From Candidatus Aceula meridiana (GTDB lineage: Bacteria; Omnitrophota; Gorgyraeia; Zapsychrales; Aceulaceae), in assembly GCA_030765185.1 (NCBI GenBank), contig JAVCDE010000024.1:187538-251537 (forward strand): 64,000 bases of DNA. Reading direction: 5' to 3'. How positions within the stretch are numbered: position 1 is the stretch's first letter; each line of letters opens with the position of its first letter. Shown here one piece after another: positions 1,207 to 58,912 of this stretch. The notes below the pieces were generated by a model, which saw only the letters and a list, made by a program, of their open reading frames with translations, had not been told where the DNA came from and did no database searches. The translations under genes were made by a program, and so were the position numbers.

Positions 1207-1233
1207 GATAGCATACATGAGAGAAATTACAAG
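1207..1233 (-). promoter_or_regulatory. Conserved upstream box (sense strand CTTGTAATT-N8-GTATGCTATC) followed by a short hairpin. It is shared with the region upstream of the giant gene at 47944..47970.
   Basis: Plus strand reads gatagcatacatgagagaaattacaag here and gatagcatacccctaagtaattacaag at 47944. Both are followed on the gene side by a 5-7 bp inverted repeat (GTTTCC..GGAAAG here, GCGTTTTC..GAAAACGC at 47914-47932). Could be a promoter (TTGTAA -35, 16 nt spacer, TATCYT -10) or an operator. Confidence 0.35.
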
Positions 1234-3025: not shown

Positions 3026-4546
3026 TTATTTGGCCTGTTGCGCGATCATCTTATTAATGGCATTCAAATATGCCTTGGCAGATGCCTCTAAGATGTCAGT
3101 TGACGCGCCATGTCCGATGTATTTTTTATCTTTAAGCTTTACCTTAACAGTTACCTCGCCTAAAGCATCTTTTCCGCGTGTAACCGATTGAATCGAGTAA
3201 TCTAAAAGCTCACCTTTGCCTTTGGCGATCTTCTCAATAGCTTTATAGCAGGCATCGACAGGACCATCTCCCGATGAACTAGCCTCACTTGCCTTGCCTT
3301 TTGATTTGATAACCACCGTCGCCTTAGGAGCGATTTTTGTACCACTCGTTACGACCAAGCTTACCAATTGCCATGTCTTTGGAACAAGCTTAGTTTCATC
3401 CTCAGCAATGGCAATCAAGTCTTCATCAAAAACTTGTTTCTTTTTATCAGCCACTAATTTAAACCTATCAAAAGCATGATCTAAAGCATCGTCTTTTAAA
3501 TTAATTCCTAAAGATTTTAAACGTACGCGAAAAGCGTGTCGCCCAGAATGCTTTCCTAAAACCAATCCGGTCTCAACAAAGCCGACATCTTCAGGCTTCA
3601 TAATTTCATAAGTTGTGCGTTCTTTTAAAACACCATCTTGATGGATACCCGCCTCATGACGAAAAGCATTGGCTCCAACAATGGCTTTGTTCGGAGCAAC
3701 AACAAACCCTGAATACTTGCTAACCAAGCGTGATGCGCGACAAATTTCTCGTGTTTTAATATTTGTAGTGCATCCATAATAATCATTGCGGGTTTGAAGC
3801 GCCATAACAATTTCTTCTACAGCAGCGTTGCCGGCTCGCTCGCCGATACCGTTAACTGTGCATTCGACTTGCCTAGCACCATTTTTAATTGCTGCCAAAG
3901 AATTGGCAGCTGCCAGCCCTAGATCATTATGGCAGTGAACAGAAATAACAGCTTTGTTAATGTTCGGGACATTGTTTTTAATATCCGTAATTAATTGTCC
4001 GAACTCGCTTGGAACTCCATATCCAACAGTGTCAGGAATATTAACCGTCTTGGCACCGGCTTTGATGACTGCCTCAACAACACTAAACAAAAAATCTTTG
4101 TCGGTTCTTGAAGCGTCCTCAGGCGAAAACTCAATATCATCATTTTTTGTTCTCGCATAACGAACAGCATCAACCGCCATCTTTAAAATTTCTTCTTTGG
4201 TGCGTTTAAATTTATACTGAAGATGAATTTTCGACGTTGCCAAAAAGACATGAATACGTGAACTCTTAGCCGCTTTAACAGCATCGGCACACGCGTCGAT
4301 ATCCTTTTTTATGGAACGTGCCAAACCGCAAACAGTTGAATTTTTAATATGCTTGGCTACGCTTTTGACAGAATTAAAATCCCCTTTTGAAATAACAGGG
4401 AATCCAGCTTCAATAATATCAACTCCTAAGCGCTCCAAAGTAAAAGCGACGTCCAACTTTTCCTTTTCGTTCATGCTAGCACCTGGTGCTTGCTCGCCGT
4501 CACGCAAAGTAGTGTCGAATATATATACTTTATCTTTTTTACTCAT
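3026..4546 (-). CDS. leuA: 2-isopropylmalate synthase (a citramalate synthase CimA-type enzyme cannot be excluded)
   Basis: DRE-TIM motifs [24 protein letters not shown] and a C-terminal LeuA-type regulatory domain. 506 aa. Confidence 0.8.
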
Positions 4547-10001: not shown

Positions 10002-11777
10002 TTATTTCCTTGCGCTATAAATATGCGGAGCAATTTTTTTCAACTTCATCGATAAAAATTCCTCAACATAATCTCCTGTCGATAACTCGACTGCCTGCTG
10101 GGCAATCTTTTTAGCATCCTGATATTTAATGCTTCTAATTAATTTCTTAATCTGCAAAATATTTAGCGCTGACATACTAAACTCGTTTAAACCTAGGCCT
10201 AACAACAAAAGAGCTAAAATAGGCTCACTCGACATTTCTCCGCAAAGCGCCACATCGATTCCCGCTTTTTTTCCAGCTTCAATGGTCTGCTTTATAAGCC
10301 TTAAAACTGACGGATGGCCTGGCTCATAAAGATTTGCAGTCTGCTCGTTAGTACGGTCAACAGCCAAAGTATATTGAATCAAGTCATTGGTGCCGATGCT
10401 AAAGAACGCGGCCTCTTTTGCTAAAAGATCTGCTGTAATAGCTGCCGAAGGAACCTCGATCATGACACCCACCTCAAGATTAGCATTAAACGGAATCTTT
10501 TCTTTTCTAAGGTCGTCTTTGACTTCTTGCAAAAGTGCATTTGCCTCTCTCAATTCGCAGACACCGGAAATCATAGGATACATCATCTTTAAGTTTTCAT
10601 TGACCGAGGCACGCAAAATAGCCCTTAGCTGCGTCTTAAAAATTTCAGGCCTACCTAAACAAAAACGAATTGCCCGCCAACCTAAGAATGACTTCATCTC
10701 TGCCGGGAATTCAATAGAAGAAACAAACTTGTCTCCACCTAAATCCAAAGTACGGATAACAACTGGCAAAGGTGCCATTTTCTCTGCAACATATTTATAC
10801 GCTTTATACTGCTCTTCTTCGCTCGGCAACTCTTGCCTATTCATATAAAGATATTCTGTGCGGTAAAGCCCGATTCCATCACTTCCTTGCGTTAAAATCG
10901 TTGAAATCTCTTCGGGAAACTCCAGGTTAGCCATAATACGAACACGACGACCGTCTTTAGTTTCTGCTGGCAATTCTTTAATGTCATCAAACCGCGCCCT
11001 AGAGGCCTCAATTTTATCTCGTTCAATGTTATATTTGCCGTGGGTCTTTTCAGAAGGATTAACAATTAAAAGCCCTTTTCGACCATCAACAATCACGTAA
11101 TCCTGATTACTAATTTTTAATGTCGCATCTTTTAAGCCAACAACAGCCGGAATCCCTAACGATTTGGCCATAATCGCCGTATGCGATGTGCGCCCCCCGA
11201 TATCCGTTGCAAAAGCCAAAATTCTTTTGCTATACATTCCAGCAGTATCAGACGGCGAAAAATCATTCGCAACAACAATAGTCTCTTCGTCTAGCTCTTC
11301 AAGATCGTGAAGCTTTGTCTCTCCCATCAAGTTTTTCAAAACACGCTTGCTAACATCGCTAATATCACTCGTGCGGTCTCTTAAATACTCATCTTCAATT
11401 TCAGCAAAAACCTTGGCATACTTCTTCATAACCTGTGAAAAAACATACTCAACACAAAACTTTTGCTTTTTAACATTTTTAATAACTTCTTGGATAACAG
11501 TCCTGTCCTCTAAAACCAAAAGATGCGCATCAAAAATCTGCGCATGGCGAACACCCATTTCTTTGGAAATTTTTCTTTGAATGTTCAAAATTTCTTCACG
11601 CGTCTTTATAAGGGCTTCTTCGAAGCGGGCAATTTCAACAGGAATTTCTTTTTCTAGGATAATCCGAGAGGGGATAAAAACATCCTGCTTATCAAGGATA
11701 AACGCTGGGCCGCAAGCAATCCCTGGTGCTGCCGGAATGCCTTTTAAAATAACTTCTTTTTTCTTTTTCGTCGGCAT
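10002..11777 (-). CDS. ptsI: Phosphoenolpyruvate-protein phosphotransferase (PTS Enzyme I)
   Basis: EI N-terminal domain, the [21 protein letters not shown] His-domain motif and a PEP-utilising C-terminal TIM barrel. Confidence 0.9.
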
Positions 11778-11790: not shown

Positions 11791-12057
11791 TTACTGGCTG
11801 GTGCTCGTTAAAAAAGCTGTCAATTCTTCACAAGCGGCTTGCGCATCATCGCCGTCGACACTAATGGTTAGCTTCGATTCCTTCTCTGCTGCAAGCATCA
11901 AAATACCCATGATCGATTTTCCATTAACCGCATCGTTTCCTTTGCGGACAATAATCTCTGAATCAAATTTTCCGGCCAATTGAACAAATAAGGCCGCCGG
12001 CCTTGCGTGCAGACCCTGATCATTTTTTATAATAATTTCTCGCTCAATTTTTGGCAT
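11791..12057 (-). CDS. ptsH: Phosphocarrier protein HPr
   Basis: GLHARPAA (His15) and GKSIMGI (Ser46) motifs. Confidence 0.85.
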
Positions 12058-12069
12058 AATAAATCTCTT

Positions 12070-13311
12070 TTAACGTTTAATAACGCGATGTTGTTCAACA
12101 AGGTTAATCAAAGCGCGTGTTAACTTTTCCGCGTCATGACGAACATAATCACTAACGCCTAACAAATCTTCCGCAACAGCTTTGCACCCCATGGCCTTAA
12201 TCTTTCCAGCATCTGGATTAACCGGATACGAATTCTCGCCCTGATACTTTTTCAAAAATTCTGCTGGCGCAATCGCGGAATTGATCAAACAGGCGTCAAC
12301 AACTTTATTGCTGGCGTGACTATGCAATGCCTCTAAATGTTCTGAAGCGCTATAGCCCTCGGTCTCGCCTTCCTGGGTCATAACATTGCAAATATAAATT
12401 TTAAATGCCGAGGAATTTTCAAGGGCTTCAGTCATTCCATTAATGATCAAATTTGGAATAATACTCGTATACAAACTTCCTGGCCCTAAAATAACAACAT
12501 CCGCACTCGCAATAGCATCTAAGGCATCTTGTGTCGGCTTGGCATCTTCAGGCTTCAAATAAAGATGTTTAATTCGACTGTTTGCTTTCGGAATCTTTGC
12601 CTCGCCCTCGGTTTGTGAACCATCCTCATACTCAGCAACAAGGTTAACGTTACTTACCGTTGAAGGGACAACTTTTCCACGGATAGCCAAAACTTTACTA
12701 GACTCCTTCACAGCTTTTTCAAAATCACCACCGGTTAACTGCACCATAGCTGTTAAAAAAAGATTTCCAAAATTATGCCCTTGAAGCTGCGAGCCTTTTG
12801 GAAAGCGAAACTGAAACAAATCGCCCATCAATGCCGGCGCATCGGCTAACGCCACAAGGCAATTACGAATATCTCCGGGGGCCACAATGTTAAATTCTTC
12901 ACGCAAACGGCCGGATGACCCACCACTGTCAGCGACGGTAACAACAGCTGTCAAGTTAGCTGTATATTCTTTTAAGCCAAGAAGCAAATTCGAAAGCCCA
13001 TGGCCACCACCAATGGCTACAATCTTCGGCCCTCGTTCGAGATACCTTCGCTGGTAAAGAATATTAACCAGATCCCTTTCTCTCTCAGGCAAAAAAACCG
13101 TTATCAAGGAAACAATGATCTTTCCAATTCCTAAAACAACAAATACAACCCCACATACAATAATGACAAAACCAAAAAAACTAACCATCTTATAGGCATC
13201 AGCTGCAAAAATAGCACCCAAGGCTACAATAAAAATTCCGAGTAAAGTCATCAGCAGCCATCGCTTAACGCGCATCCCCGGATAAAACCATTTAACAATA
13301 TTATTAATCAT
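12070..13311 (-). CDS. YvcK/CofD-family gluconeogenesis-factor-like protein with an N-terminal extension of ~90 aa containing two TM helices
   Basis: VAIGGGHGLSNLLLGLK...VADSGGSSGRLR motif block. Two hydrophobic helices precede it (LLMTLLGIFIVALGAIF; FFGFVIIVCGVVFVVLGIGKIIV). Confidence 0.7.
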   Translation of the reverse strand: MINNIVKWFYPGMRVKRWLLMTLLGIFIVALGAIFAADAYKMVSFFGFVIIVCGVVFVVLGIGKIIVSLITVFLPERERDLVNILYQRRYLERGPKIVAIGGGHGLSNLLLGLKEYTANLTAVVTVADSGGSSGRLREEFNIVAPGDIRNCLVALADAPALMGDLFQFRFPKGSQLQGHNFGNLFLTAMVQLTGGDFEKAVKESSKVLAIRGKVVPSTVSNVNLVAEYEDGSQTEGEAKIPKANSRIKHLYLKPEDAKPTQDALDAIASADVVILGPGSLYTSIIPNLIINGMTEALENSSAFKIYICNVMTQEGETEGYSASEHLEALHSHASNKVVDACLINSAIAPAEFLKKYQGENSYPVNPDAGKIKAMGCKAVAEDLLGVSDYVRHDAEKLTRALINLVEQHRVIKR

Positions 13312-13399: not shown

Positions 13400-13870
13400 T
13401 TAGCCGATACGTTCATCCTCGAGGGCGATGAGCTTTAGGACAGCTTTAACATTTTCAGCTGACTTAAGGTTGTCTCTAAAAAATTTATCTTTGAGAAGAC
13501 GCGAAATTCTAGCCAACGCTTTTAAATGCGGCCCGGCAGAATCAATAGGCGCGATAAGAAGAAAGAAAATATGGGCAGGTTCCCCATCTAAAGAATCAAA
13601 ATTAACGCCATTTTTGCTGATGCCTAAACTGGCTGTTAATTTTTCCATCCCGTCAAACTTGGCATGCGGGATAGCAACGCCCTGACCAATTGCAGTAGAG
13701 CCCAGCTCCTCCCTCGCCATAATAATATCAAAAACCTTTGCTCTGTTCTTTTTGTCGACAACATTCGAATCAATTAAAAGGTCAATCATTTCGCGAACAA
13801 CATCTTTTTTAGTCGACGCTTTTAGGTCAACCGAGATCGCCTTCTTGCAAAGAAAATCACCTAGTCTCAT
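13400..13870 (-). CDS. ptsN: PTS EIIA-Ntr-type (fructose-family) IIA protein
   Basis: Active-site GQGVAIPHAKFDG. Start set at MRLGDF (ATG 13868-13870, preceded by GGAGGAATA). The longer track ORF runs into tRNA-Gly and is an artefact. Confidence 0.8.
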   Translation of the reverse strand: MRLGDFLCKKAISVDLKASTKKDVVREMIDLLIDSNVVDKKNRAKVFDIIMAREELGSTAIGQGVAIPHAKFDGMEKLTASLGISKNGVNFDSLDGEPAHIFFLLIAPIDSAGPHLKALARISRLLKDKFFRDNLKSAENVKAVLKLIALEDERIG

Positions 13871-13918
13871 TATTCCTCCTTGAAAAACGTGGATATTTTT
13901 TAAAAAAAATAAAAAGAG

Positions 13919-13988
13919 CGGCGAATGGGGCTCGAACCCATGACATCTACCTTGGCAAGGTAGCATTCTACCACTGAATTACCGCCGC
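13919..13988 (-). tRNA. tRNA-Gly (GCC)
   Basis: Reverse complement GCGGCGGTAATTCAGTGGTAGAATGCTACCTTGCCAAGGTAGATGTCATGGGTTCGAGCCCCATTCGCCGCT. The anticodon loop matches tRNA-Gly-GCC. CCA is not encoded. Confidence 0.8.
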
Positions 13989-34728: not shown

Positions 34729-35502
34729 TCAAGATAAAACCATTAATCCTCCGTAGCGGTCGAGCCAGCTCTCGCAAGAAGAATAATCCGGGCAAACTTT
34801 CTTAATCTTTTGCCAAAAACGCTTCGAATGGTTTGGAACCTTAAGATGCGTTAGTTCGTGAATAATAATATAATCAATAACCGCTTGAGGTGCCATAACC
34901 ATTTTCCAATTTAGATGAACGCTTTGACTATGATAATGGCAACTTCCCCAAATTTTCTTCTGGCTGCGAACAGTGACCTTTGAAGGATCCACCCCTAAAA
35001 ACCGTGCTAAAGGAAAAATGCGTCCCGCCAAAATTTCTTTCGCTTGTTTTCGGTACCAGACGATTAAAGCTTTTTGTACAGAAGGCTCCACCGCATGCGC
35101 AGGCATATCAAAAGGAATGCCGACTTCCAAATATTTATCTGTTAAACTAATTTTCAGACGCTTACCATCTGAAGGCGCATAACGCAGACTGTATCTCTCA
35201 CCTAAAAATAAAAATTCAGCTCCATTGCGGTAGGATCTTTTTCCCCTAGTAAAAAAACGCTTTTCAAATCCCTTAATTTTATCAAAAATCCACCTTGCTT
35301 TTTGCCGGATAAAATCTGCAATCTCCTTTTCTCGGAGAGACTTCGGTGCAAAAACTTTAACTTTAAGGTCTTGATCAATCTCAATTGCAATGGTAAACCG
35401 ACGGGCAGAACGAATAAGAAGATAGGAAATCTCCCCAAGCGGAGTTGTAATCTCGCGCGACGTAATTTCTCGCGGTGTTTTATTCAAAAAACGATACGTC
35501 AA
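34729..35502 (-). CDS. DUF45/YgjP-like zinc metallohydrolase
   Basis: HEXXH as IIIHELTHLKVPNHS near the C-terminus. Confidence 0.7.
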   Translation of the reverse strand: MTYRFLNKTPREITSREITTPLGEISYLLIRSARRFTIAIEIDQDLKVKVFAPKSLREKEIADFIRQKARWIFDKIKGFEKRFFTRGKRSYRNGAEFLFLGERYSLRYAPSDGKRLKISLTDKYLEVGIPFDMPAHAVEPSVQKALIVWYRKQAKEILAGRIFPLARFLGVDPSKVTVRSQKKIWGSCHYHSQSVHLNWKMVMAPQAVIDYIIIHELTHLKVPNHSKRFWQKIKKVCPDYSSCESWLDRYGGLMVLS

Positions 35503-36634
35503 TGTTAACTTTTGGCCCTACGTTAGGAGCTGCTGATGCACTATTAACTGACTCGCCATCTCGAATAATATATCCTCGGTTACCCTGGGCTAACTCAATC
35601 TGATCTTTTTGTCGTTGAACTTCTCGACGGGCTGAGGCGGCTTGGCGTTTAAGCTCATGGATGCGCTGTTTGGCAAGTCCGATTCCTTTTTTATGGTCAA
35701 AAATACGAGCCATTAAAGTTGAGTATTTTAAGTCCGTCATTTTTAATTGGGCATCGTCAACACGTGACTGATAAGCAGCTGAATTATTTCTCCAGACTTC
35801 TGGATCCTGAGAGATAGCAGCATTCATCTCTGTCTTAAGGGCTGCTAATTCCTGGCGTAAAATATCACGCTCTTTTAAAAGCGATACCGCTTGCTCATTT
35901 AAATTTGCTGTTTGCGCCTTAGAAAGTTCAATTTTTAGGCCACTAATTTCTTCTTGAGTTTGTTGGTTTTCTACCTGGGTCCTGGCAAGTAAGCTTTCAG
36001 TCTGCGCCAGAATAACACGGGTCGCGTTGTACTCGTTATTTAGCTCTGTCAAAACCTCTGCCTGGATTGTATATTGTTCCCTCGAAAAACGCAAAAGCCC
36101 TGCCTGGTTTGTCGCTGCACCCATCATCAAATGGTTTGATTTCTCAATAGTACGATGAACGCCTACTTGCTGACGCAATACAATAAATCCTAAAACGACT
36201 AAAATAAGAAAAAGCGCAATATTAACGATGTCTTTAAAATTATCCATGCGCTGAATGCTGACAATACGGCTTTGAACTCTTGTCTTTAGGCCCGTCAAAT
36301 CCTCTGCGGATGGATTAACAAATTCAATCCCACAAAGCAGGCTATGATTAAAAAATCCCTTTTCCTTTGACCAAACAACGCGCCCTTGCGATGGTAAAAA
36401 ATTATCTTTACTCTCTCTTTCCAGTCGAAGGCCTAAAACAGTCCCATTGCCAATAGGCCTTAAGGCTTTTGCCTCAAGCAGAGCCCCGGTTGAACTGATA
36501 TCTTTAATTCTTCCCGAGCCAAAAAAAGTGCTAATCTCAGACGACAGATTAACAGCCAGGTTTTCTCTGATACGAAACTTCCTTCGCCCTTCCTGATAAA
36601 GCTTCGCTGGAAAACCAAACATATTTCTTTTCAT
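35480..36634 (-). CDS. PilZ-domain protein with a TM segment and a long C-terminal coiled coil
   Basis: N-terminal RRKFRIR...DISSTGALL PilZ motifs, a TM segment (IVNIALFLILVVLGFIVL), then a heptad-rich region. Confidence 0.55.
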   Translation of the reverse strand: MKRNMFGFPAKLYQEGRRKFRIRENLAVNLSSEISTFFGSGRIKDISSTGALLEAKALRPIGNGTVLGLRLERESKDNFLPSQGRVVWSKEKGFFNHSLLCGIEFVNPSAEDLTGLKTRVQSRIVSIQRMDNFKDIVNIALFLILVVLGFIVLRQQVGVHRTIEKSNHLMMGAATNQAGLLRFSREQYTIQAEVLTELNNEYNATRVILAQTESLLARTQVENQQTQEEISGLKIELSKAQTANLNEQAVSLLKERDILRQELAALKTEMNAAISQDPEVWRNNSAAYQSRVDDAQLKMTDLKYSTLMARIFDHKKGIGLAKQRIHELKRQAASARREVQRQKDQIELAQGNRGYIIRDGESVNSASAAPNVGPKVNIDVSFFE

Positions 36635-41748: not shown

Positions 41749-44700
41749 TTATTTTAGCAAACTTAACTCTTTTGGCTCGTCGGCTAATATTTCTGCTGTT
41801 TCACTACCGTCATCTCTCTCTTCAATGTTCTGAAATCCTAAAAGCTGAGGCAGCTGCGGCATTGGCATAATATTAATAATCACAGGTACAAGTCCGTCAA
41901 TTTGAATCTGCTCTAAATTCTGCATCTCAAGAGGAAGCGGTACACCTTCCCCATCAATTTTAATATTAAGATCCTTATAAATTCCCGTTAAATCAATACC
42001 ACCGGTCCGCGTTGCTGCCGAAGAATTTTTTTCTTCCTGATTAAACCCTGCAACAATGCGCACAATCGTATCCAAATCTACACTTGACTCTTTGCTTAGC
42101 TCATAGGCAAACATTGCAGCCGTAAATCCGGAAGGTTCAGCAGCACGTCTTTTAATATTATATTTCTTGTATATTTTCTCAACTCCATTTATTTCTTGAT
42201 AAATAATGACTCTTGTGCCTACAAGGTTCTCTGCGCCTTCCTCAAAAGATTTCTCGGCCTGAACTTGCCACTGTGGATGATTCTCAACAGCCTTTTTTTC
42301 TGAAGTCTCTACGGAAGAGCTTACCACTGTCTCACGCAACAGCGCATGGGCAAATCGGCGTCCTTTCTTTTTCTGAGAGACCTCGCTCAGCATAACAAGA
42401 ACAAATAAAAATGGGGCATTGATCTCATGAAAAACTTTCCTATCATTGCCATCTTCTCGAAATAGGATTCTTGTCGGTATTTCACTGCTCATACTGGCAG
42501 GACCTCTTGAGTAATTCCCAATAATCCATTCTAACTCCTCGTTTTCTTCAAGAAGGCCCCAAACATATTCCGGAACCTCAAAACTTTTCTTTTCCAAGAG
42601 ACTATAATTAGAATAAGAAATCAAAGGATCATCAAGATTTGCAATTTGCGCTCTTGCCGCCTGCCACACGTGTTTTATCAAATCATCTGATTCAGATTGC
42701 AAGGCAATCTGTCTATAAAGCTCTCGGGCATAAAGAGGAGCTGCATCCAGGAGTTCTGCCATTACAATATAAAAGTTATCTTTTGTTATCCGATAAAGGC
42801 CCTGTCCACCTGAGGCTTCGATTTCTATAAAATCTCTTGCTTCAAGCTCTTCTTCCGGAAGAGCAGCCCTTTCGCTCTTTTCCTCAAAATACAAATCCCA
42901 AAGAATCGAAATTTTATTGCGGCAAAGAGTTAAGATATTTAATGAGACAGTGTGTTTTCTTTTATTTACAAAGAGCTGGCCGATCCTATCTACTCCTTTT
43001 TTAATTCTAACCTGTATAAGAGGATCCTCAATCTTCTCAATCATCTGTCTTGCCATGGCCGCGCTGCTGATTTTTATCCTGACTTTTTCTTGTGCCTTTA
43101 ACAAAGCTTCTCGATGAGCCTTTACTTGATAAGCCTTTAACAAAGCTTCTCGATAACCGCCTTCAAAAGAAGTTTCTGCACCACTATAAAGCTCTTTCAG
43201 GGTAACAGGCTCTCCAAAAACCTTCTCTAAAATTTTAGTAGCATTTTCCCCTTCATAGTCTTTAGCAAAAACAGGAAGGAGCTCCCCACTAAACTTACCG
43301 TCATCAGACAAAGAGGCGTTCGTCCAAGAAACATCCAGTCTTGCCGAAGCAAATTCTAAAGAATTTATTAAAGCAACAAGTCCCTGGACAACTTTTCTTT
43401 TATTTTCTTTTATTTTTTCTTTATCTGGATTATTCCAATCAACTGCTCTTTTACGCAAAGTTCGAAAAGGCTTTTTCCCTTGTTCAACCCAATCATCATA
43501 GCTTTGCGTGTAGACTCCTCCCTTTTCATCCACATAAATAACAGCATCACTTACCTTATAATTTCCATCCCTTCCTAAATAAAAAGGAAGAGGTCTTTTT
43601 TTAGTAGGAAGGGATAAACTCTGGCTCTCATTTAGAAACGCCTCATCTTCCTTGCTTAAAACAAAAGGTGGGTTTAATTTAAATTTCCCCTTAAAATCAC
43701 TTTCGATAATAACATTATCGCCGATATCCACATCCGTTAAATCAAGCTGCCCTTTTCTAACAACTCTAGCATATTGCGCCAACTTTTCTTGCTCTTCTTT
43801 GTTTAGTTCGGCAAATCCAAGACTATAGCGGTCTTTAAAATAGGCAGGATTAATGTTTTTACCAACCTCGTCCCTTGCTTCATCAATTACAATATCTAAA
43901 TCTACTCCTGTATCAATTCCAATAGCTTCAAAAAAGGAAAGTATATCTTCCATAGGAATATTTCCAACCTGATGTGCAGCTTTGGGCGATCCTCCTTGGT
44001 TAAGCAAGCTTACATCTATTTCTCTTATACCTGCAACAATCGCAGCTAAAACGTTAACGATCCCCTGTTCAGAATCAGTATGACCATGATAGGTAAAGCG
44101 AATTTCTCCTCTTTCAATCTCTTTTCTAAAATGCTTAAAAATCTTTCTTATAGCTTTAGAGGTTTCTTGGGCTGTTGCCTCACCCGTCGTATCACTTAAC
44201 GCAAAGACCTTAATGCCCGCCTTTTTATGCATTGTTTCAATCATTGGGATAATATCATCCTCAATGCTAATCTCTTCCTTCTCTCCTTTATCATTTGTAT
44301 AACCCCAAACATTGCTCAAATAACAAAGTGTTTCGACATCTATGCCTAAAAGTTTATTTTGCTCGTTAACATACCTAAACGAATCTTTTGTTGGATCATA
44401 GCTTTCTAAATTACCAGGCTCAGAATAACCGGCAAGCTTATAGAAAAAATCTAAAGGATTGTTCTCGCCTACGTTGGATTTGGCATATCCTTTTGCTGCC
44501 TGAATATTAATAGCGATGCGTGCCAAGCCAGGGTCGTCTTCAAAAATACGCATAATCTGATTTAAACTAAAAGCCAAATAACCTCTTTTAATACCAGTGT
44601 CTTTATGTTTAGTATAAAGTTTTTTTGCTAAAGACCGCGCATGTATATTAATCGGAATAACCTTTTCATGAACATAAGAAACAGGCTCAATACGATTAGT

Positions 44701-47700
44701 TACAAGATTTCCTTTGGCGTCATAGCGTTTACGCGCAGAAAAAGCCCGAATGAGAGCATCTGTAATCTTAAACAGGGCTTCCTCGGTGATAACGTCTTCT
44801 TTTTTCAACATCTGAAAGGATTCCCGCGGAACCGCATTAAAAGCAATCGGATCATTTTTAGCGATCTCAATAATTTCTGCAAGATTAATCCCATTTTCAT
44901 TAATTAAGCGGATAAGCTTATCTAGATTTCTTTTGGCTGTCGGATAATCAATGTTGAGAATCTTATTCTTTGCAGTAGAAGATGCTTTGGCATAAAAAAC
45001 AATGACCTTGCCCTTACCTTGGAGGGTAATCACATGGGCATGGACTGCATCGATTTCTTCGTCTTCAAAATCCTTTCTTAAAAGATGGATAGTGCCGTCA
45101 GGTCTTAAAATGCTATTAAAATCTTCTTCAACAATATCTTCGTGGTCAACAACCTGAATATATTCGCCGCTTTGAGGCTTAAAAATTTGTTCTAACCCCT
45201 CCGCATCTTTGATAATGACATAGTGATAATCAACTGTTATATCAAAAACATCTTTAATTGTTTTTCTTAAATTTTTCTCACTTTCGTTAGAAAACCGAGC
45301 GCTATTCTCTTTCGATCTCGTTAAATCAAGGAGAAACTTTCTTAAGTCGTCTATAGATTGATATGCCGCAGGTTTTTCCATTTCAATCTCTTCAGTATCA
45401 GCCGATCCTCTCCTTGCAAGGCTCCAGAAACCGTCTTTTTTCAAAAAACCAATTAGCCCTTCCTCTTTAGTTTTCACACCGAAACCTTGTAAAGCAGAAG
45501 GCCAATCTTTAGAATCTAGCCCCTCATTATTTTCTCCGTAAACTTTTTCAATTGTTAAATGTCCTTTAAAAGCATTCTTAGCCGCCGAATAAACCTCTTT
45601 CGCCGGGACATTGTCTGCAAAGCTGGGGATGGTGATTGAGGAGGAAGAGACCCATAAAGCGAGGGAATACTCATCTTCAGTTGCAACCGGCATTACCTCG
45701 CTGCCTTTGAATTTGCTAGCCAAAGTTAAAAGATTCGACTGAACAGCTGCAATCAAGTCAGGTGATTTTTCTTTATTGCTCTGGATCACTTTGACCAAGA
45801 CACCTTTTTGTTTCTTGCCGTTAACTTCTCGTATAAAAGGCTTAGCTTCAATAGAAAAATCATAGTTCGGCTTTAATTCTAAGCTTATATCCTGATTCAT
45901 AAATTCACGCACAAGCGTTTCGACTTTCTTCACAACAGAAGAGCTCGTCTTTAGCCCAGAGATTTGCACAACCTGCCATTTATTATTATCTTCCGATAGG
46001 GGACGAATCTTGACAAACTGGCTTGAATATCCGCTAAAAAATACTGTTATTTCCTTAATGTCATCACTTCCATCAAGCTCAGGCCAAACATCTTCTATCC
46101 CATCTTTGGCATTTCCAAACGAAAAATCTAACGTTTCACCATCGTCAAAAGTAGCAACAACCTTACGAGGCAGAACTTTAGGATAGGCATCAGCGATATG
46201 CTGCAAAATTTCGCTTCCGTCTTTTTCGATTATCTCTTTTACTCGCAACCCCGAACTCGACCTTGAGAAAACAGCAACTTTACCGCCGGCTTCAAGAATA
46301 TAAGATGTCAAAGAAACTTTTTGGCTCTCTCTTTTTTCGCGAATTGCAGCAATATCTACGGGAGCTAAATTTGATTCATGGAAAACAGGAACGCCCTGAT
46401 TTTGAAACCTAAGCAAAGCTTCCTTAATTGCGGATGGAGTTTGATAGGTTCTTTCTCTCCGGCCTATGCTTAAAGGGATTCTAGAGCTTTTTCTTAAAGG
46501 GATTCTAGAGCTTTTTTTATAAGAAATTTTAAAAGCTTTAATTGCCTCTGCACTCGGGCTGTAATTTTGTCCGTTTCTTGTTTTAATAATCTTTTTAAAA
46601 TGATCAGGAGGTAGGCTTTCAGCTCCAACAACTCTCGTTGGCCCGGTAAACACTACTTTTTCTTTAAAATTATTTCTTTTCTTTCGGACAATATTCTTTC
46701 TTTGTTCTAAAGTCGCAAACGCGGCATTAGTAATCTTCTTTATTTTTTCAGAAAAATTGTTCCAATAAAACTTAATCCCGCCGGAAAAATATTTACGAGG
46801 GAGATTTTTGTTCGTGTAAGGGTCATATTCAGCTTTAATATAGTTGTAGGCACCTTGCTTGTAGGCCTCAAGGTATTTTTGGTAAATAACTTCTTTTCCT
46901 TCTTGTTCACTTACTAAATCAATTCCTTTAGTCCTATTTTTATCAACATAGGCTTGGCCCAAAAGGCTTGTCTTGGCGGCTTGCTTAAACCACGCGGCAA
47001 GAATAAGCGAATGATAAATCTGGCGCAAAGGTGCAAAGTTGCGGCCAAAATTAACTTCTTTTTCCAGCTCGGGAATAACGATTTCACGGACAATCGCCGA
47101 AGAGACAGCGCTTGTTTTTTCAATCTCTGATTTTTCTATTTGATTGGTTGCAATATCTTTTCGCCCTTGATTTTCTTGTAAGGCCAGATAGTCTTCCTCC
47201 AGCATAACCTTTAAAGAACTCTCTGCCACGAAAACCATATTGTCATGCTCATAAACTGCAACTTCATCCGGCATAATCCACACCTTATTAAAGGTGTTGA
47301 TTGGAATTTCTGTTGTGCCAAAGGTCTCATATGCCTTTTTATAAATTTTCTCCCAAAATTTCCTTCCAAGATCGTTCTCAGGGTAGATAAGTGATGCGGT
47401 AATTTGCTTTAAAAGATAATCCTGGGCGAGCATGTCACGACCCATTTCTGTTTTGCCAAAATCATCAGCAACAATGCGGTCTTTTTCATAGGGAGAAAGA
47501 TTGACCCAGAGGTCTTCTTCGGGGGTGGTTAATGACGCTAAGAAATAACGGATCATCTTTTCAGATTCAGATTTAAAAGCTTGTCCCTCAAGCCCATCAT
47601 CGCCGCTATTGACGATAAAATCAAACTCAAAAGGATTGTTTGGGTGAATTTGAATGCCTGTAATAATGGCTGGCTGGTAAGATGTGCTTAATGGCACCAT

Positions 47701-47838
47701 GGTTCCCGGAGCTGGCAGCTGCAACATTTGTGCAAATCCAGTTGATGGCAAGACAATATTGGTCAAAAATACGAAACAAACAAGAAAGGAAACAGTCTTG
47801 GCGCAACGGCCTTTCTTGCTGCGATGAAGCGATGGCAT
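41749..47838 (-). CDS. Giant (2029 aa) signal-peptide-bearing protein of unknown function. It has a conserved N-terminal module shared with the paralog at 1..952 and an internal HMGL-like (DRE-TIM) half-barrel.
   Basis: Uninterrupted 6090-nt ORF. Signal-peptide-like N-terminus (KTVSFLVCFVFLTNIVLPSTGFAQ). Residues ~1180-1330 line up with LeuA motifs (DTTG, YHGHTD, GNIPMEDI). Rho-independent terminator downstream. Confidence 0.7.
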   Translation of the reverse strand: MPSLHRSKKGRCAKTVSFLVCFVFLTNIVLPSTGFAQMLQLPAPGTMVPLSTSYQPAIITGIQIHPNNPFEFDFIVNSGDDGLEGQAFKSESEKMIRYFLASLTTPEEDLWVNLSPYEKDRIVADDFGKTEMGRDMLAQDYLLKQITASLIYPENDLGRKFWEKIYKKAYETFGTTEIPINTFNKVWIMPDEVAVYEHDNMVFVAESSLKVMLEEDYLALQENQGRKDIATNQIEKSEIEKTSAVSSAIVREIVIPELEKEVNFGRNFAPLRQIYHSLILAAWFKQAAKTSLLGQAYVDKNRTKGIDLVSEQEGKEVIYQKYLEAYKQGAYNYIKAEYDPYTNKNLPRKYFSGGIKFYWNNFSEKIKKITNAAFATLEQRKNIVRKKRNNFKEKVVFTGPTRVVGAESLPPDHFKKIIKTRNGQNYSPSAEAIKAFKISYKKSSRIPLRKSSRIPLSIGRRERTYQTPSAIKEALLRFQNQGVPVFHESNLAPVDIAAIREKRESQKVSLTSYILEAGGKVAVFSRSSSGLRVKEIIEKDGSEILQHIADAYPKVLPRKVVATFDDGETLDFSFGNAKDGIEDVWPELDGSDDIKEITVFFSGYSSQFVKIRPLSEDNNKWQVVQISGLKTSSSVVKKVETLVREFMNQDISLELKPNYDFSIEAKPFIREVNGKKQKGVLVKVIQSNKEKSPDLIAAVQSNLLTLASKFKGSEVMPVATEDEYSLALWVSSSSITIPSFADNVPAKEVYSAAKNAFKGHLTIEKVYGENNEGLDSKDWPSALQGFGVKTKEEGLIGFLKKDGFWSLARRGSADTEEIEMEKPAAYQSIDDLRKFLLDLTRSKENSARFSNESEKNLRKTIKDVFDITVDYHYVIIKDAEGLEQIFKPQSGEYIQVVDHEDIVEEDFNSILRPDGTIHLLRKDFEDEEIDAVHAHVITLQGKGKVIVFYAKASSTAKNKILNIDYPTAKRNLDKLIRLINENGINLAEIIEIAKNDPIAFNAVPRESFQMLKKEDVITEEALFKITDALIRAFSARKRYDAKGNLVTNRIEPVSYVHEKVIPINIHARSLAKKLYTKHKDTGIKRGYLAFSLNQIMRIFEDDPGLARIAINIQAAKGYAKSNVGENNPLDFFYKLAGYSEPGNLESYDPTKDSFRYVNEQNKLLGIDVETLCYLSNVWGYTNDKGEKEEISIEDDIIPMIETMHKKAGIKVFALSDTTGEATAQETSKAIRKIFKHFRKEIERGEIRFTYHGHTDSEQGIVNVLAAIVAGIREIDVSLLNQGGSPKAAHQVGNIPMEDILSFFEAIGIDTGVDLDIVIDEARDEVGKNINPAYFKDRYSLGFAELNKEEQEKLAQYARVVRKGQLDLTDVDIGDNVIIESDFKGKFKLNPPFVLSKEDEAFLNESQSLSLPTKKRPLPFYLGRDGNYKVSDAVIYVDEKGGVYTQSYDDWVEQGKKPFRTLRKRAVDWNNPDKEKIKENKRKVVQGLVALINSLEFASARLDVSWTNASLSDDGKFSGELLPVFAKDYEGENATKILEKVFGEPVTLKELYSGAETSFEGGYREALLKAYQVKAHREALLKAQEKVRIKISSAAMARQMIEKIEDPLIQVRIKKGVDRIGQLFVNKRKHTVSLNILTLCRNKISILWDLYFEEKSERAALPEEELEARDFIEIEASGGQGLYRITKDNFYIVMAELLDAAPLYARELYRQIALQSESDDLIKHVWQAARAQIANLDDPLISYSNYSLLEKKSFEVPEYVWGLLEENEELEWIIGNYSRGPASMSSEIPTRILFREDGNDRKVFHEINAPFLFVLVMLSEVSQKKKGRRFAHALLRETVVSSSVETSEKKAVENHPQWQVQAEKSFEEGAENLVGTRVIIYQEINGVEKIYKKYNIKRRAAEPSGFTAAMFAYELSKESSVDLDTIVRIVAGFNQEEKNSSAATRTGGIDLTGIYKDLNIKIDGEGVPLPLEMQNLEQIQIDGLVPVIINIMPMPQLPQLLGFQNIEERDDGSETAEILADEPKELSLLK
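46469..46516 (-). repeat. In-frame 24-bp tandem duplication inside the giant gene
   Basis: CTTAAAGGGATTCTAGAGCTTTTT occurs twice, encoding (K/R)KSSRIPL twice. Confidence 0.7.
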
Positions 47839-47943
47839 AAGGAAAACCCTTCTTTTTCTTCGTGGCTGGTTAACTATTTAAAATTTAGGAAATACAATAT
47901 GTTATTGCAAGAGAGCGTTTTCGATCAAAACGCTTTTTACAAA

Positions 47944-47970
47944 GATAGCATACCCCTAAGTAATTACAAG
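47944..47970 (-). promoter_or_regulatory. Conserved upstream box plus covarying hairpin (47914..47932), shared with 1207..1233
   Basis: See the feature at 1207..1233. Here the box lies ~106 nt upstream of the giant gene start. Confidence 0.35.
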
Positions 47971-48084
47971 TCCTTTGGCCCATAGTAAAGATGACGCAAC
48001 ATACTGTTAGGTATGAACTTACAATCTTAATAAAATATTTCTAGGAATTTAATAGAAATTTAACTTTTTGGAGGAAGAATTGCC

Positions 48085-48756
48085 CTAGAAAAGCAGAATT
48101 CCCTGAAAAAGAAAGTATCCTGCGGCTATAAATAAAATGGCAGCTGAGGCCTGTTTGACTCGCAAAAGCCATCTACCAGATTTTGGAAGGCGTGCCAAAA
48201 ATCCTGAAAACGTCCCTGCTAAAATAAGTGAGAACCCAACTCCATAGGCAAACACAAACAATAAACTTATAGCATGAAAAAGGTTCTGTTTTGAGCTTAC
48301 ATATAAAAGAAGTGTTCCTAAGACCGGCGCTGTACAAGGGCCCACGACAAACCCAGAAACCATGCCAAACAAAAACACAGCTATAAAACCCTTAGGTCGA
48401 ATTCTGTTCTGAAGTTTAGCACCAACAACCGGAAATGGAATGATGTTGAGCATGATAAGCCCAAAAACAACCAAAACACAGGCAACAACAATAAAAATAT
48501 AAGGATTATTTTGAAGCTGTCCAAATAATTGGCCGGTTAAAACCGCAATCGCGCCGAGAGCGCTATAGGTTATTGCCATGCCAAGAACATAAATGCACGA
48601 AAGAAAAAATCCTACCCTCTTCGTGCCTTGAGCATTTGCGCCGGCGATAAATCCGGCAATGATGGGAATGACTGGATAGACGCAAGGGGTGAAACTAACC
48701 ATCACCCCCGCGCCTAAAACAATAAAGTAATCTAAAAAATTTCCGGAAAGCTCCAT
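48085..48756 (-). CDS. ccdA: CcdA/DsbD-family thiol-disulfide transporter (cytochrome c biogenesis-type)
   Basis: Six TMs with FTPCVYPVIP and a second conserved Cys (GPCTAPVLG). Confidence 0.75.
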   Translation of the reverse strand: MELSGNFLDYFIVLGAGVMVSFTPCVYPVIPIIAGFIAGANAQGTKRVGFFLSCIYVLGMAITYSALGAIAVLTGQLFGQLQNNPYIFIVVACVLVVFGLIMLNIIPFPVVGAKLQNRIRPKGFIAVFLFGMVSGFVVGPCTAPVLGTLLLYVSSKQNLFHAISLLFVFAYGVGFSLILAGTFSGFLARLPKSGRWLLRVKQASAAILFIAAGYFLFQGILLF

Positions 48757-48787: not shown

Positions 48788-51700
48788 TTATCCTTCTTTT
48801 TGTTTCGGTGTAAACGCCTCTGAAGCCATGGCTTGATAAATAGCCCAGCGTTCGTCCACGTCTTGTTGCGCAAGTCCAAAAAGCATTTTTGCTCGCTCAG
48901 GATCAGCTTTCATCAAACTTCTGAAACGGTTTTCTTTTAACGCGTATTCTTCAAAAGTCATCTTAGGAGCTTGAGAGTCCATAATTAAAGGATTCTTCCC
49001 CTCGTCTTTAAGAAGCGGGTTAAAACGAAATAGTGGCCAATAACCACAGTTCACAGCATCTTTTTGATACTGAAGCCCACAGCCCATATCAATACCATGG
49101 GCGATGCAATGACTATAAGCAATAACCAAAGATGGGCCAGGATAATGTTCAGCTTCTAAAAGTGCTTTAACAGTATGCTCGTCTCGGGCACCGATGGCAA
49201 CATTAGCAACGTACACATTGCCATAGCTCATAATCATGCGTGCTAAATCTTTTTTAGGCGCCGGCTTTCCAGCTGCAGCAAATTTGGCGATAGCACCTCG
49301 AGGTGTTGCCTTTGACATCTGTCCTCCGGTGTTTGAGTAAACTTCAGTATCTAAAACTAAGAAGTTAACATCAAAACCAGATGCTAAAACGTGATCAAGC
49401 CCGCCGTATCCGATATCATAGGCCCATCCGTCTCCACCCATAATCCAAACACTCTTTTTAACAAGCGTATCAGCAACGGACATAAGTTGAATTGCTTCAG
49501 GAGACTTATCGTCTTTTATTTTTTCCTTAAGCGTTTCAACACGCTCTCGTTGCTCAAAGATATCAGGCTCTTCGATCTGATTAGCTTCAATAATAGCCTT
49601 AGTTAAATCGCCTCCGATTTTACCCTCAAGCTTTTTAACAAGTTCGCAGGCGTATTGTTTTTGCTTATCAATAGCTAGCCTGAATCCAAGACCAAACTCA
49701 GCGTTGTCTTCAAAAAGCGAATTAGACCATGCAGGACCTTTGCCTTGAGCATTTTTAGACCAAGGTGTTGTCGGCAAGTTGCCACCATAAATAGATGAAC
49801 AACCCGTTGCATTAGCCACAACCATACGGTCTCCAAAAAGCTGACTGACTAAACGAACATAAGGTGTTTCACCACATCCAGCGCACGCGCCTGAGAATTC
49901 AAATAATGGTTCAAGGAATTGTGCTCCACGGACATTTGTCTTTATTTTGCTGCGATCAATGCGAGGAATCTTGCAGAAAAATTCCCAATTTTTAACTTCT
50001 TTTTCACGCAAAGGTGGCTGCGAATGCATATTGATTGCTTTAAGCTCTGGGTTTTCCTTGCTCTTGGCAGGACATGCTGTAACACAAAGTCCACAACCTG
50101 TACAATCTTCCGGCGCAACCTGAAGAGTAAACTCATTGCCGGCTAAATCTTTATCTTTCGCTGGAATGTGTTTAAAAGTCTCTGGTGCCCCTTCGAGGCC
50201 TTTAGGATCATAAACCTTAGCACGAATAACTGCGTGTGGACACACAACTGAACACTTTCCGCACTGAATACAAATATCTTTTTCCCAAACAGGAATCTGC
50301 AAAGCAATATTGCGTTTTTCCCATTGCGTTGTTGCCGTCGGGAACGTTCCGTCAATTGGAAAAACACTAACAGGTAAATCATCGCCACAGGCTTGCATAA
50401 TCTTAGCTGTAACATTTTGTACAAACTCCGGGGCTTGAGCGGAAACCGCAGGTGGCATATCAATGGTGCTTGTGACTTTATCCGGATATTCAATCTGGTT
50501 CATATTTTCAATGGCCTTATCAACAGCGTTGAAATTCATCTGAACGACTTCTTCGCCTTTTTTACCATAAGCTTTTTTAATAGCTTTTTTAATCTCTTCG
50601 ATTGCTTGTTCTTTTGGAAGAACGCCTGATATCGCAAAGAAACATGTTTGCATAATCGTGTTGATGCGTCCGCCCATGCCTGCCTCTTCGGCGACTTTAT
50701 AAGCATCGATGGCATAAAATTTTATTTTCTTATCAATAATTTGCTGCTGAACCGGCTTTGGAAGATTATCCCAAACTTCATCTTTTCCATAATAACTATT
50801 AAGAAGAAAAACGCCTTCCTGATCAATATGCTTTAGAATGTTATATTTCTCAACAAAAACAAACTGATGACATCCCAAGAAATTAGCACGTGATATCAAA
50901 TACGGTGAATGAATAGGTTCTGGTCCAAAACGCAAATGCGATACGGTCATAGCCCCGGCTTTTTTCGAGTCGTAAACAAAGTAACCTTGTGCATAATTTG
51001 GCGTATTCTCACCGATAATCTTAATCGAATTCTTGTTAGCTCCAACGGTTCCATCAGACCCTAGTCCGTAAAAAACAGCTCGCACGCCTTTAGGATTTTC
51101 CGTTGAGAAATTTGGATCATATTCTAAAGATGTCTTGGTGACATCGTCATTAATACCAAGCGTGAAATGATTTTTAGGAGCATCTTTAGTCATTTCGTCT
51201 AAAAGGCCTTTGATCATAGCCGGAGTAAACTCTTTCGAAGACAATCCGTAGCGGCCGCCAATAACCTTTGGTAAAGTTTTAAATTTCGCAGCACCACCTT
51301 CAACTAATGCATCGATAACATCTAAATAAAGAGGCTCAGATGCACCTGGCTCTTTTGTTCTATCTAAGACACCAATGGTCTTTGTCGTTGCAGGCAAAGC
51401 GTCAACAAGATGCTTAATTGAAAATGGTCGATAAAGTCTAACTTTCATAACGCCAACTTTCTCGCCTTGGCTCGTAAGATATTCAATAGTTTCTTGAGCT
51501 GTCTCAACGCCGGAACCCATTAGCACAATAACGCGTTCGGCATCTTTAGCGCCAAAGTATTGAAAGAGCTCGTATTTTCGCCCTGTTATTTTTTCAAATT
51601 TCTGCATAGCCTTTTCGACGATGCCGGCGCACTTATTATAGTAAGGATTGACCGTTTCACGGGCTTGAAAAAAGACATCTGGATTCTGAGCAGTTCCGCG

Positions 51701-52348
51701 AACTACAGGATTATCCGGTGAAAGCGCACGCGCTCTATGGGCAAGAACCAAATCATCAGAAATCATTTGCTTAATATCATCTTCTGCGACTTGGTCAATT
51801 TTAGCAATTTCGTGTGAACTTCTAAACCCATCAAAAAAATGAACAAACGGTATACGTGACTCAAGGCTTGCCGCATGAGAAATTAATGCAAGGTCCATGA
51901 CTTCCTGGATAGAGCCAGATGAAAGAAGTGCAAATCCTGTTCCACGAGTTGCCATAACGTCAGAGTGATCGCCAAAAATCGAAAGAGCATGCGTTGCCAC
52001 AGATCGAGCTGCAACATGAAAAACAGTCGAAGTCAACTCACCTGCAATTTTGAACATGTTCGGAATCATTAAAAGCAAGCCTTGTGATGCGGTAAACGTT
52101 GTTGTAAGTGCTCCGCGTTGCAGTGCACCATGAACAGCGCCAGCAGCTCCACCTTCAGACTGCAATTCACTTACCAATGGCGTTGTGTCCCAAATATTTT
52201 TTTGCCCTTTAGCGGCCCAATCATCAGCCCACTCACCCATACCGGATGATGGGGTAATTGGATAAATTGCCACAACCTCGCTGCACTTAAACGCGACATG
52301 CGCTGCTGCTTCGTTTCCATCGATCATGATTTGCTTCTTACTCATCAT
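48788..52348 (-). CDS. nifJ: Pyruvate:ferredoxin (flavodoxin) oxidoreductase, single-chain PFOR
   Basis: 1186 aa. Two 4Fe-4S ferredoxin motifs (CIQCGKCSVVCP, CTGCGLCVTACP) and a TPP-binding C-terminal domain GDGW. Confidence 0.9.
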   Translation of the reverse strand: MMSKKQIMIDGNEAAAHVAFKCSEVVAIYPITPSSGMGEWADDWAAKGQKNIWDTTPLVSELQSEGGAAGAVHGALQRGALTTTFTASQGLLLMIPNMFKIAGELTSTVFHVAARSVATHALSIFGDHSDVMATRGTGFALLSSGSIQEVMDLALISHAASLESRIPFVHFFDGFRSSHEIAKIDQVAEDDIKQMISDDLVLAHRARALSPDNPVVRGTAQNPDVFFQARETVNPYYNKCAGIVEKAMQKFEKITGRKYELFQYFGAKDAERVIVLMGSGVETAQETIEYLTSQGEKVGVMKVRLYRPFSIKHLVDALPATTKTIGVLDRTKEPGASEPLYLDVIDALVEGGAAKFKTLPKVIGGRYGLSSKEFTPAMIKGLLDEMTKDAPKNHFTLGINDDVTKTSLEYDPNFSTENPKGVRAVFYGLGSDGTVGANKNSIKIIGENTPNYAQGYFVYDSKKAGAMTVSHLRFGPEPIHSPYLISRANFLGCHQFVFVEKYNILKHIDQEGVFLLNSYYGKDEVWDNLPKPVQQQIIDKKIKFYAIDAYKVAEEAGMGGRINTIMQTCFFAISGVLPKEQAIEEIKKAIKKAYGKKGEEVVQMNFNAVDKAIENMNQIEYPDKVTSTIDMPPAVSAQAPEFVQNVTAKIMQACGDDLPVSVFPIDGTFPTATTQWEKRNIALQIPVWEKDICIQCGKCSVVCPHAVIRAKVYDPKGLEGAPETFKHIPAKDKDLAGNEFTLQVAPEDCTGCGLCVTACPAKSKENPELKAINMHSQPPLREKEVKNWEFFCKIPRIDRSKIKTNVRGAQFLEPLFEFSGACAGCGETPYVRLVSQLFGDRMVVANATGCSSIYGGNLPTTPWSKNAQGKGPAWSNSLFEDNAEFGLGFRLAIDKQKQYACELVKKLEGKIGGDLTKAIIEANQIEEPDIFEQRERVETLKEKIKDDKSPEAIQLMSVADTLVKKSVWIMGGDGWAYDIGYGGLDHVLASGFDVNFLVLDTEVYSNTGGQMSKATPRGAIAKFAAAGKPAPKKDLARMIMSYGNVYVANVAIGARDEHTVKALLEAEHYPGPSLVIAYSHCIAHGIDMGCGLQYQKDAVNCGYWPLFRFNPLLKDEGKNPLIMDSQAPKMTFEEYALKENRFRSLMKADPERAKMLFGLAQQDVDERWAIYQAMASEAFTPKQKEG

Positions 52349-57985: not shown

Positions 57986-58015
57986 ATAAAGGAAAGTTAA
58001 AAAGAAATAAAGAAA

Positions 58016-58903: not shown

Positions 58904-58912
58904 ATTCTTACA

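Follow-up and report, generated by a model that had tools for sequence, protein, structure and literature searches.

Candidate LacI-Type Operators behind Extended −10 Promoters in a Family of Large Omnitrophota Proteins

The closest described counterparts of the element considered here are LacI-family operators of Bacillus. CcpA of Bacillus subtilis has the cre consensus TGAAARCGYTTTCW / WTGNNARCGNWWWCAW, and cre sites of an AGAAA type are also listed for it (PMC3463425); for IolQ (DegA) the perfect palindrome AGAAAGCGCTTTCT was deduced, with two sites at iolX, both downstream from the site at which transcription starts (TSS), at +4..+30 and +68..+88, that mediate repression (PMC5504672). Palindromes of the class nGnAAnCGnTTnCn, whose core is identical to that of the cre and IolQ sites (PMC3463425, PMC5504672), were found behind the promoters of two paralogous genes in a stretch of 64,000 nucleotides from Candidatus Aceula meridiana (Omnitrophota; contig JAVCDE010000024.1), which in its full length is called the window below. 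One gene encodes a giant protein and the other, here called the paralog, is cut off by the start of the window. Comparison of the two leaders with those of related genes suggests that the giant gene and the paralog are each probably controlled by a sigma-70-type promoter with a palindromic operator for a dimeric repressor of the LacI family.

Promoters and Palindromes of the Two Window Genes

At their N-termini, the proteins share 60% identity across 320 residues (E 2e-135). The giant protein has an N-terminal membrane anchor or signal and a conserved family domain of ~330 residues, and residues 1196-1317 form an HMGL-like (TIM-barrel) domain (E 1.4e-13). The N-terminal domain has 1257 homologs, with named sources that are nearly all metagenome-assembled genomes of Candidatus Omnitrophica/Omnitrophota and with several copies of the family per single genome. 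A scan of species-representative genomes gave 581 confirmed loci, and 79 (L001-L079) were fetched for upstream analysis; the closest family locus is that of Ca. Aceula lacicola (64% identity). The two window genes and their predicted promoter elements are the following.

41749..47838, minus strand: giant gene, 2029 aa, ATG at 47838
1..952, minus strand: paralog gene, N-terminal 317 codons only, ATG at 952, truncated by the window start
47964..47969, minus strand: −35 element of the giant gene, TTGTAA, within block CTTGTAATT (47970-47962)
47942..47952, minus strand: extended −10 element of the giant gene, TATG (TRTG, −16 region), C, TATCTT; 16-nt spacer
1227..1232, minus strand: −35 element of the paralog, TTGTAA, within block CTTGTAATT (1233-1225)
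1205..1215, minus strand: extended −10 element of the paralog, TATG, C, TATCCT; 16-nt spacer

A preliminary description of the window had placed a 27-nt box, CTTGTAATT-N8-GTATGCTATC, upstream of both genes. It is present there exactly (47970-47944 and 1233-1207, both on the minus strand), these being the only two matches in the window even at three mismatches allowed (0.02 expected), and its distances to the start codons, 106 nt for the giant gene and 255 nt for the paralog, are as had been claimed. In a gapless alignment of the two leaders, the conserved blocks are CTTGTAATT (9/9), GTATGCTATC (10/10), and GAAAACGCTCTC/GAAAGCGCTTTC (10/12), and the spacers between them have diverged, with 2/8 and 9/21 positions identical (counted by eye). 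The third block, which is in the same register in both leaders, had been overlooked.

The first two blocks coincide with −35 and −16/−10 elements and the 8 nt between them are diverged, which marks the box, as judged from its sequence, as a promoter of the sigma-70 type whose −10 element is extended by TRTG; transcription is predicted to start near 47935 in the giant gene and near 1198 in the paralog, both on the minus strand. The hexamers match at four of six positions each (−35, TTGTAA; −10, TATCTT and TATCCT, with A2 and T6 kept), and the extended −10 element compensates for this weakness. Sigma-54 and other promoter classes were dropped by eye; the conserved blocks fit −35, TRTG, and −10.

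The motif TRTGnTAnnnT lies upstream of 37 homolog genes, with a density of 1.05/kb on the sense strand versus 0.045/kb in coding DNA, and in 25 of these 37 promoters TTG is found 17-19 nt before TRTG. When the window promoters are aligned with those of two Ca. Aceula loci, the invariant columns of the four-way alignment are CTTG and TATGCTAT. The motif is also found in other intergenic DNA of the loci (13 instances in 30 kb) and at the promoters of LacI genes, and the same promoter type precedes an ABC-transporter gene of the window (19046-19036). The preliminary description had allowed that the box might be a generic promoter, and this proves to be so: the exact 27-nt box recurs in four metagenome contigs, all of unrelated DNA (GC 31-55%), that contain no family gene and have no similarity to the window. 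Because the same architecture precedes unrelated genes, the box is generic rather than family-specific, and the family-specific element is the palindrome. Of the two earlier proposals, the evidence supports that of a promoter (TTGTAA, 16 nt, TATCYT) combined with an operator, but with the roles swapped.

The conserved unit that follows the promoter is a palindrome of 12-16 bp, aAGAAArCGyTTTCTt, with a central CG. Its predicted copies in the window, scored with a position weight matrix (PWM) where a score is given, are listed below; as palindromes they are assigned to neither strand.

1174..1185: paralog operator (predicted), perfect palindrome GAAAGCGCTTTC; 16-mer AGGAAAGCGCTTTCAT at 1187-1172; centre at ~+19
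47911..47922: giant operator copy 2 (predicted), GAAAACGCTCTC on the minus strand; 16-mer TCGAAAACGCTCTCTT at 47924-47909; centre at ~+19
47926..47937: giant operator copy 1 (predicted, weak), AAAAGCGTTTTG on the minus strand; PWM 9.1; centre at ~+4

The paralog site, GAAAGCGCTTTC, is the sole exact match to GAAANCGNTTTC in the window and has the top PWM score in it (21.5); the −10 element ends 25 nt before the operator centre. Copy 2 of the giant gene, which is in the same register, has one mismatch to GAAANCGNTTTC and ranks fourth (PWM 14.1) in the window. First copies equivalent to copy 1 of the giant gene occur in the same place in L001 (AAAACGTTTTT) and L019 (AAACGTTTTC). The central CG is retained in each of the two copies of the giant gene. 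The two best intergenic PWM sites of the window are those after the two boxes.

Two further high-scoring palindromes, at 29620-29639 and 35249-35268, were set aside because both lie inside coding sequence. A PWM match just before the giant ATG (47838-47857, AGAAGGGTTTTCCTTATG) was rejected as an operator because its centre is GG, not CG, and it overlaps the ribosome-binding site; a site at −31 in L004 (2970-2990, AAGAAAGGGTTTTCTTGATG), rejected as well, has the same context, and the two probably represent a shared ribosome-binding region and no operator. The spacer between the two giant copies (47922-47926, the loop of the hairpin discussed below) contains GATC, a Dam-type methylation site that is conserved neither in the paralog nor in the Aceula loci.

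The Palindrome and a LacI-Family Regulator across Omnitrophota

The upstream regions scored were the 400 nt before the family genes of the 79 loci. GAAArCGyTTTC recurs shortly after −10 in the anchored homolog promoters, and exact GAAANCGNTTTC is found at 0.575/kb in the upstream regions versus 0.0063/kb in the rest of the loci. PWM sites (consensus aaAGAAArCGyTTTCTtt, with the central C and G at 0.95 each) have densities of 0.996/kb upstream of family genes, 0.068/kb in other intergenic DNA, and 0.023/kb in coding sequence, and the enrichment of the palindrome upstream of homologs amounts to 15- to 90-fold. A perfect G.AA.CG.TT.C core is present in 24 of the 79 loci, where 0.57 would be expected. 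The operator centre lies 9-26 nt from the −10 element in 16 of 20 promoter-operator pairs, whereas the distance from operator to start codon ranges from 17 to ~300 nt; at L042, L026, L052, L057, and L072, the operator overlaps or lies upstream of the −35 element, the promoters being themselves predictions. Palindromes in L004 (position 244) and L021 (position 382) were set aside as lying inside coding sequence. A candidate operator of this type precedes about one-third of the family members across Omnitrophota, and the earlier suggestion of a cis-element that co-regulates the family holds in this form, with the palindrome as the element.

It could be argued that there is no dedicated element and that the similarities are leftovers of a gene duplication combined with chance palindromes in AT-rich DNA. 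In the whole window, GAAANCGNTTTC with one mismatch is in fact not over-represented (5 found versus 5.3 expected), and coding sequence has high PWM scores as well. However, the two proteins are only 60% identical, while the DNA between the blocks is randomised and the blocks coincide exactly with promoter elements and operator. Because the upstream enrichments extend throughout the phylum and the spacing to −10 is constrained, this explanation is contradicted and can scarcely be credited.

With CcpA, PurR, and LacI as tblastn queries and the window and the fetched loci as target, one LacI-family gene was found; it belongs to L077, where a family member follows it immediately. The encoded protein has more than 120 orthologs (42-100% identity), every named source of which is Omnitrophica/Omnitrophota. 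They have a LacI helix-turn-helix (HTH) domain (Pfam PF00356) and a periplasmic-binding-protein fold, keep the hinge-helix leucine, and score below every named NCBIfam equivalog cutoff; by these sequence features, they form an unnamed LacI subfamily. A CcpA equivalog was ruled out (128-147 bits versus a cutoff of 442, TIGR01481). Nine distinct ortholog loci, drawn from L077 and L080-L091, were examined, in which the pairs of a LacI-family gene and a large anchored protein are located as follows.

L077, 1730-2770, same strand: LacI-family gene and large anchored protein pair
L080-L083, 6001-7041, same strand: LacI-family gene and large anchored protein pair
L084 and L090, 5001-6041, same strand: LacI-family gene and large anchored protein pair

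All nine loci have a palindrome of the TGTAAnCGnTTACA or GAAAnCGnTTTC type at the promoter serving the LacI gene or its operon (for example, TTGCAA...TGATAGTCT-attg-ATGTAAGCGCTTACAT in L083 and GTGTAACCGGTTACAA in L084). The next gene is a family member in four of the nine (L077, L080, L081, and L082), with 40-54% identity to the N-terminal domain of the giant protein, and is preceded by an extended −10 promoter, 4-5 nt, and then the operator (CTTGACA...TATGGCATACT-ttaa-ATGTAAGCGCTTACAT in L080; ...TGGTATGGT-gttat-ATGAAAACGTTTTCAT in L081). In L083, L084, and L090, the next gene encodes another large anchored protein that lacks the family N-terminal domain, and palindromes are again present. 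The large anchored proteins adjacent to LacI genes have 795-995 residues, with Radical_SAM matches in L084 and L090; the giant protein shares a C-terminal block of ~100 residues (giant residues 1903-2007) with the family members that adjoin LacI genes in L077 and L081.

Because the core equals that of Bacillus LacI-family operators and palindromes stand at the promoters of the LacI orthologs, the element is considered to be a LacI-type operator. Transcription would start from the extended −10 promoter, with one palindrome (paralog) or two (giant gene) over ~+1 to +27. A LacI-family dimer would bind the palindromes at ~+4 and +19 in the giant gene and at +19 in the paralog and, by overlapping the start and the early transcribed region, would block initiation or early elongation by RNA polymerase; a small-molecule effector would relieve or strengthen its binding. 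The gene for the regulator would be autoregulated and often encoded beside a family member, and the organism from which the window derives would presumably have such a gene.

Several observations weigh against this interpretation. A plain −35/−10 consensus scan returned no promoter call (8/12 matches with a threshold of 9/12). The giant sites are weak (PWM 14.1 and 9.1) in a window where ~20 sites score at least 9.8, and 44 of the 79 family loci are without a site. It should also be noted that the PWM was trained on regions that it later scored, a circularity that the seed-regex counts and the control with other intergenic DNA reduce but do not remove. There is no LacI-family gene in the 64-kb window, and no LacI or other HTH Pfam domain was found among its open reading frames (ORFs) of at least 150 aa, which together with HPr were those scanned. 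Lastly, the sites beside LacI genes are mostly of a TGTAA type, whereas the dispersed family sites are of the AGAAA type.

This last difference implies that the dispersed sites could be read by another regulator, either a second LacI-family paralog specific for AGAAA or a dimeric factor from a different family, and the absence of a LacI gene from the window would be in keeping with this. The two kinds of site, mainly ATGTAAsCGsTTACAT beside LacI genes and AAGAAArCGyTTTCTT when dispersed, occur within one genome, OFTM38 (L080, L073), but intermediate or hybrid sites are also known, namely ATGAAAACGTTTTCAT in L081, ATGTAAGCGCTTTCAT in L077, AAGAAAACGCTTTCCC upstream of lacI in L082, and AGGAAAGCGCTTTCAT of the window paralog. 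The combination of a central CG and a conserved hinge leucine agrees with recognition by a LacI-family protein, the mechanism of which is known from the structures of PurR and LacI with DNA. Moreover, CcpA, which is one LacI-family protein, tolerates exactly these positions (WTGNNARCGNWWWCAW; AGAAA-type cre sites; PMC3463425). A separate regulator for the dispersed sites is therefore regarded as unlikely, and a single LacI-family protein would read both TGTAA- and AGAAA-type sites.

Aptamers of the cyclic di-GMP-I (c-di-GMP-I) class (RF01051 or the GGC variant, RF03167; 61-62 bits, which reaches or exceeds the gathering score) are present in 5 of the 79 loci and are the only riboswitch matches in ~520 kb.

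L029, 2438-2588, sense strand: c-di-GMP-I aptamer upstream of the family gene
L035, 2609-2764, sense strand: c-di-GMP-I aptamer upstream of the family gene
L039, 2518-2664, sense strand: c-di-GMP-I aptamer upstream of the family gene
L065, 2611-2691, sense strand: c-di-GMP-I aptamer upstream of the family gene
L079, 2859-2937, sense strand: c-di-GMP-I aptamer upstream of the family gene

The order in L035 is operator, promoter, riboswitch, second promoter, operator, and gene, and some family members seem to combine LacI-type and c-di-GMP control. No c-di-GMP riboswitch was found in either window leader; a PilZ-domain gene of the window (35480..36634) indicates c-di-GMP signalling.

The Hairpins as DNA Site or RNA Structure

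The preliminary description had also reported a hairpin behind each box, with compensatory changes between the two stems that were taken to indicate a selected structure. Stem-loops do exist at both positions, but that of the giant gene is not GCGTTTTC-gatc-GAAAACGC, and that of the paralog has 5 bp and continues as GGAAAG, not GGAAAC.

47915..47933, minus strand: giant hairpin GCGTTTT-GATCG-AAAACGC, 7 bp (8 with the flanking A-U), 5-nt loop
1182..1195, minus strand: paralog hairpin TTTCC-TCAA-GGAAA, 5 bp, outer G/G unpaired

The giant hairpin is formed by the right half of predicted operator copy 1, which pairs with the left half of copy 2, and the paralog hairpin by what appears as a remnant right half-site that pairs with the left half of the operator. 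As RNA, the former has a folding energy of −10.7 kcal/mol (z −3.1), and similar hairpins arise at other loci with two copies (−9.7 kcal/mol in L019, −6.3 kcal/mol in L001), whereas a palindrome on its own reaches no more than −1.6 kcal/mol. The folding check that had been proposed thus finds the giant hairpin alone to be stable: the value for the paralog, −3.3 kcal/mol (z −0.49), is insignificant, and 58 of 200 shuffles fold equally well. Two sequences provide no statistical basis for compensatory change, and 35 related sites are without covariation (score 0.095 versus 0.087 ± 0.018 for shuffled sites; 153 of 500 shuffles as high). The proportion of bases paired across sites is 78.1%, versus 77.5% in shuffled controls, and departures from the palindrome affect one side of it, compensation being seen for 1 of 18 in the core. 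The claim of selection for a structure is not upheld.

A role in RNA would be that of a 5′-terminal leader hairpin, common to the family, that acts as an mRNA stabiliser, attenuator, or protein-binding element. 5′ stem-loops are known to protect mRNAs, and the giant hairpin, with its stability and its likeness to those of L019 and L001, would lie at ~+2 to +21 of the predicted transcript; also, the 250-nt leader of the paralog (950-1199, minus strand) is more stable than its shuffled versions (−50.7 kcal/mol, z −2.5). However, the paralog hairpin itself is not, most family loci have the weakly folding single palindrome, and across the phylum it is the sequence that is conserved and not the pairing. 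An intrinsic terminator or attenuator was ruled out because the stem of the giant gene has no U-run behind it (TCTCTTGC follows), and no terminator-like site was called in 47500-48400. A search of Rfam with both leaders at E <= 1 gave nothing credible; the best match of the paralog leader is the idnO motif, with 25.6 bits versus a gathering score of 100 (E 0.07). In several loci, the element would not be part of the transcript of the predicted promoter because it sits upstream of it (upstream of or within the promoter in at least five). A general role of the hairpin in RNA is consequently very unlikely, although the stronger two-copy hairpins may have one that no result requires. The constrained spacing to −10, the position of some sites upstream of −35, the lack of covariation, and the weak folding favour the view that the palindrome is a protein-bound DNA site.

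Gene Context, Significance, and Comparison with Known Systems

The promoter of the giant gene is adjoined on its upstream side by a gene for a DsbD-like membrane protein (48085..48756). Apart from the HMGL-like domain of the giant protein, the window has a separate, genuine HMGL gene of the 2-isopropylmalate/homocitrate synthase type at 3026..4546. The gene content of 22461-29683 and 48788-63378 is typical of an anaerobe and includes a BatA/BatD-MoxR-VWA-DUF58 operon, PFOR (48788..52348), PEP carboxykinase, the anaerobic ribonucleotide reductase NrdD with radical-SAM activases, ferritin, rubrerythrin, and a flavodiiron-like protein. Three tRNAs (Gly-GCC, Leu-TAG, and Lys-TTT) at 13916-14214 on the minus strand were the only matches at the gathering score in an Rfam scan of the window; an ORF at 13400..13966 (called EIIA-2) overlaps tRNA-Gly by ~50 nt, and its true start is probably further downstream.

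The Omnitrophota, uncultured bacteria that are mostly ultra-small, are known for their very long and enigmatic proteins. In the papers searched on these proteins, no mention of promoters, operators, or LacI was found; the parts described here, a sigma-70 promoter and a LacI-type operator, are textbook elements, and it is their link to an Omnitrophota large-protein family that is absent from the literature searched. The informative element is the palindrome, the 27-nt box being merely a good promoter, and a shared LacI-type operator with an adjoining autoregulated LacI gene offers a concrete and cheap experimental handle on when the large proteins are made. A more far-reaching scheme, which is put forward tentatively and is less likely than not, is that a single phylum-specific, autoregulated LacI repressor, usually encoded beside one family member, might be the master switch of the whole expanded family, acting through dispersed cre-like operators and answering to one small-molecule signal, conceivably a sugar derived from host or prey, with c-di-GMP riboswitches as a second input at some members. 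If this were true, the long proteins of ultra-small, host-dependent bacteria would constitute one inducible regulon with a biochemically identifiable inducer.

The promoters of the window resemble Gram-positive −16-region promoters of the sigma-70/SigA class, for which the TRTG-extended −10 layout has been described, in having TTGnnn at −35, a spacer of 16 nt, and a TAnnnT that is immediately preceded by TATGn. They differ from sigma-70/SigA extended −10 promoters in that the hexamers match at only four of six positions each and in that the promoter is predicted from sequence.

With respect to the operator, the Omnitrophota consensus, aAGAAArCGyTTTCTt, has a 14-nt core to which AGAAAGCGCTTTCT of IolQ (DegA) is identical. 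The two systems differ in that IolQ acts in Bacillus on targets of inositol catabolism, whereas the Omnitrophota targets are large membrane-anchored proteins for which binding is predicted only, and in that the Omnitrophota regulator is not the equivalog of any named LacI-family protein. The similarity to the CcpA/cre system lies in the paralog site, AGGAAAGCGCTTTCAT, which is one position off the cre consensus, and in the location of the sites, many of which in both systems are downstream of the TSS (roadblocks) and few upstream. In Firmicutes, an HPr with a Ser46 motif is the corepressor of CcpA. The window encodes an HPr with this motif, which belongs to a phosphotransferase system (PTS) regulatory gene set at 10002-13966.

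13400..13966, minus strand: EIIA-2
12070..13311, minus strand: CofD/YvcK-like protein
11791..12057, minus strand: HPr (His15 GLHARPA, Ser46 GKSIMG)
10002..11777, minus strand: Enzyme I

No HPr kinase was seen in the window. The difference from CcpA is that the targets found in the ~0.7 Mb of DNA sampled are one paralog family and the regulator gene, with no broad catabolic regulon.

Local repressors of the LacI/lacO and PurR types share with the Omnitrophota system a regulator gene that adjoins the target, sites at the promoter of the regulator itself, and, at +1 to +20 of an extended −10 promoter, a palindrome whose centre is CG. The Omnitrophota system differs from them in that its targets are large secreted or anchored proteins and no catabolic operon, and in that many unlinked paralogs of the adjacent target gene also have this type of operator.

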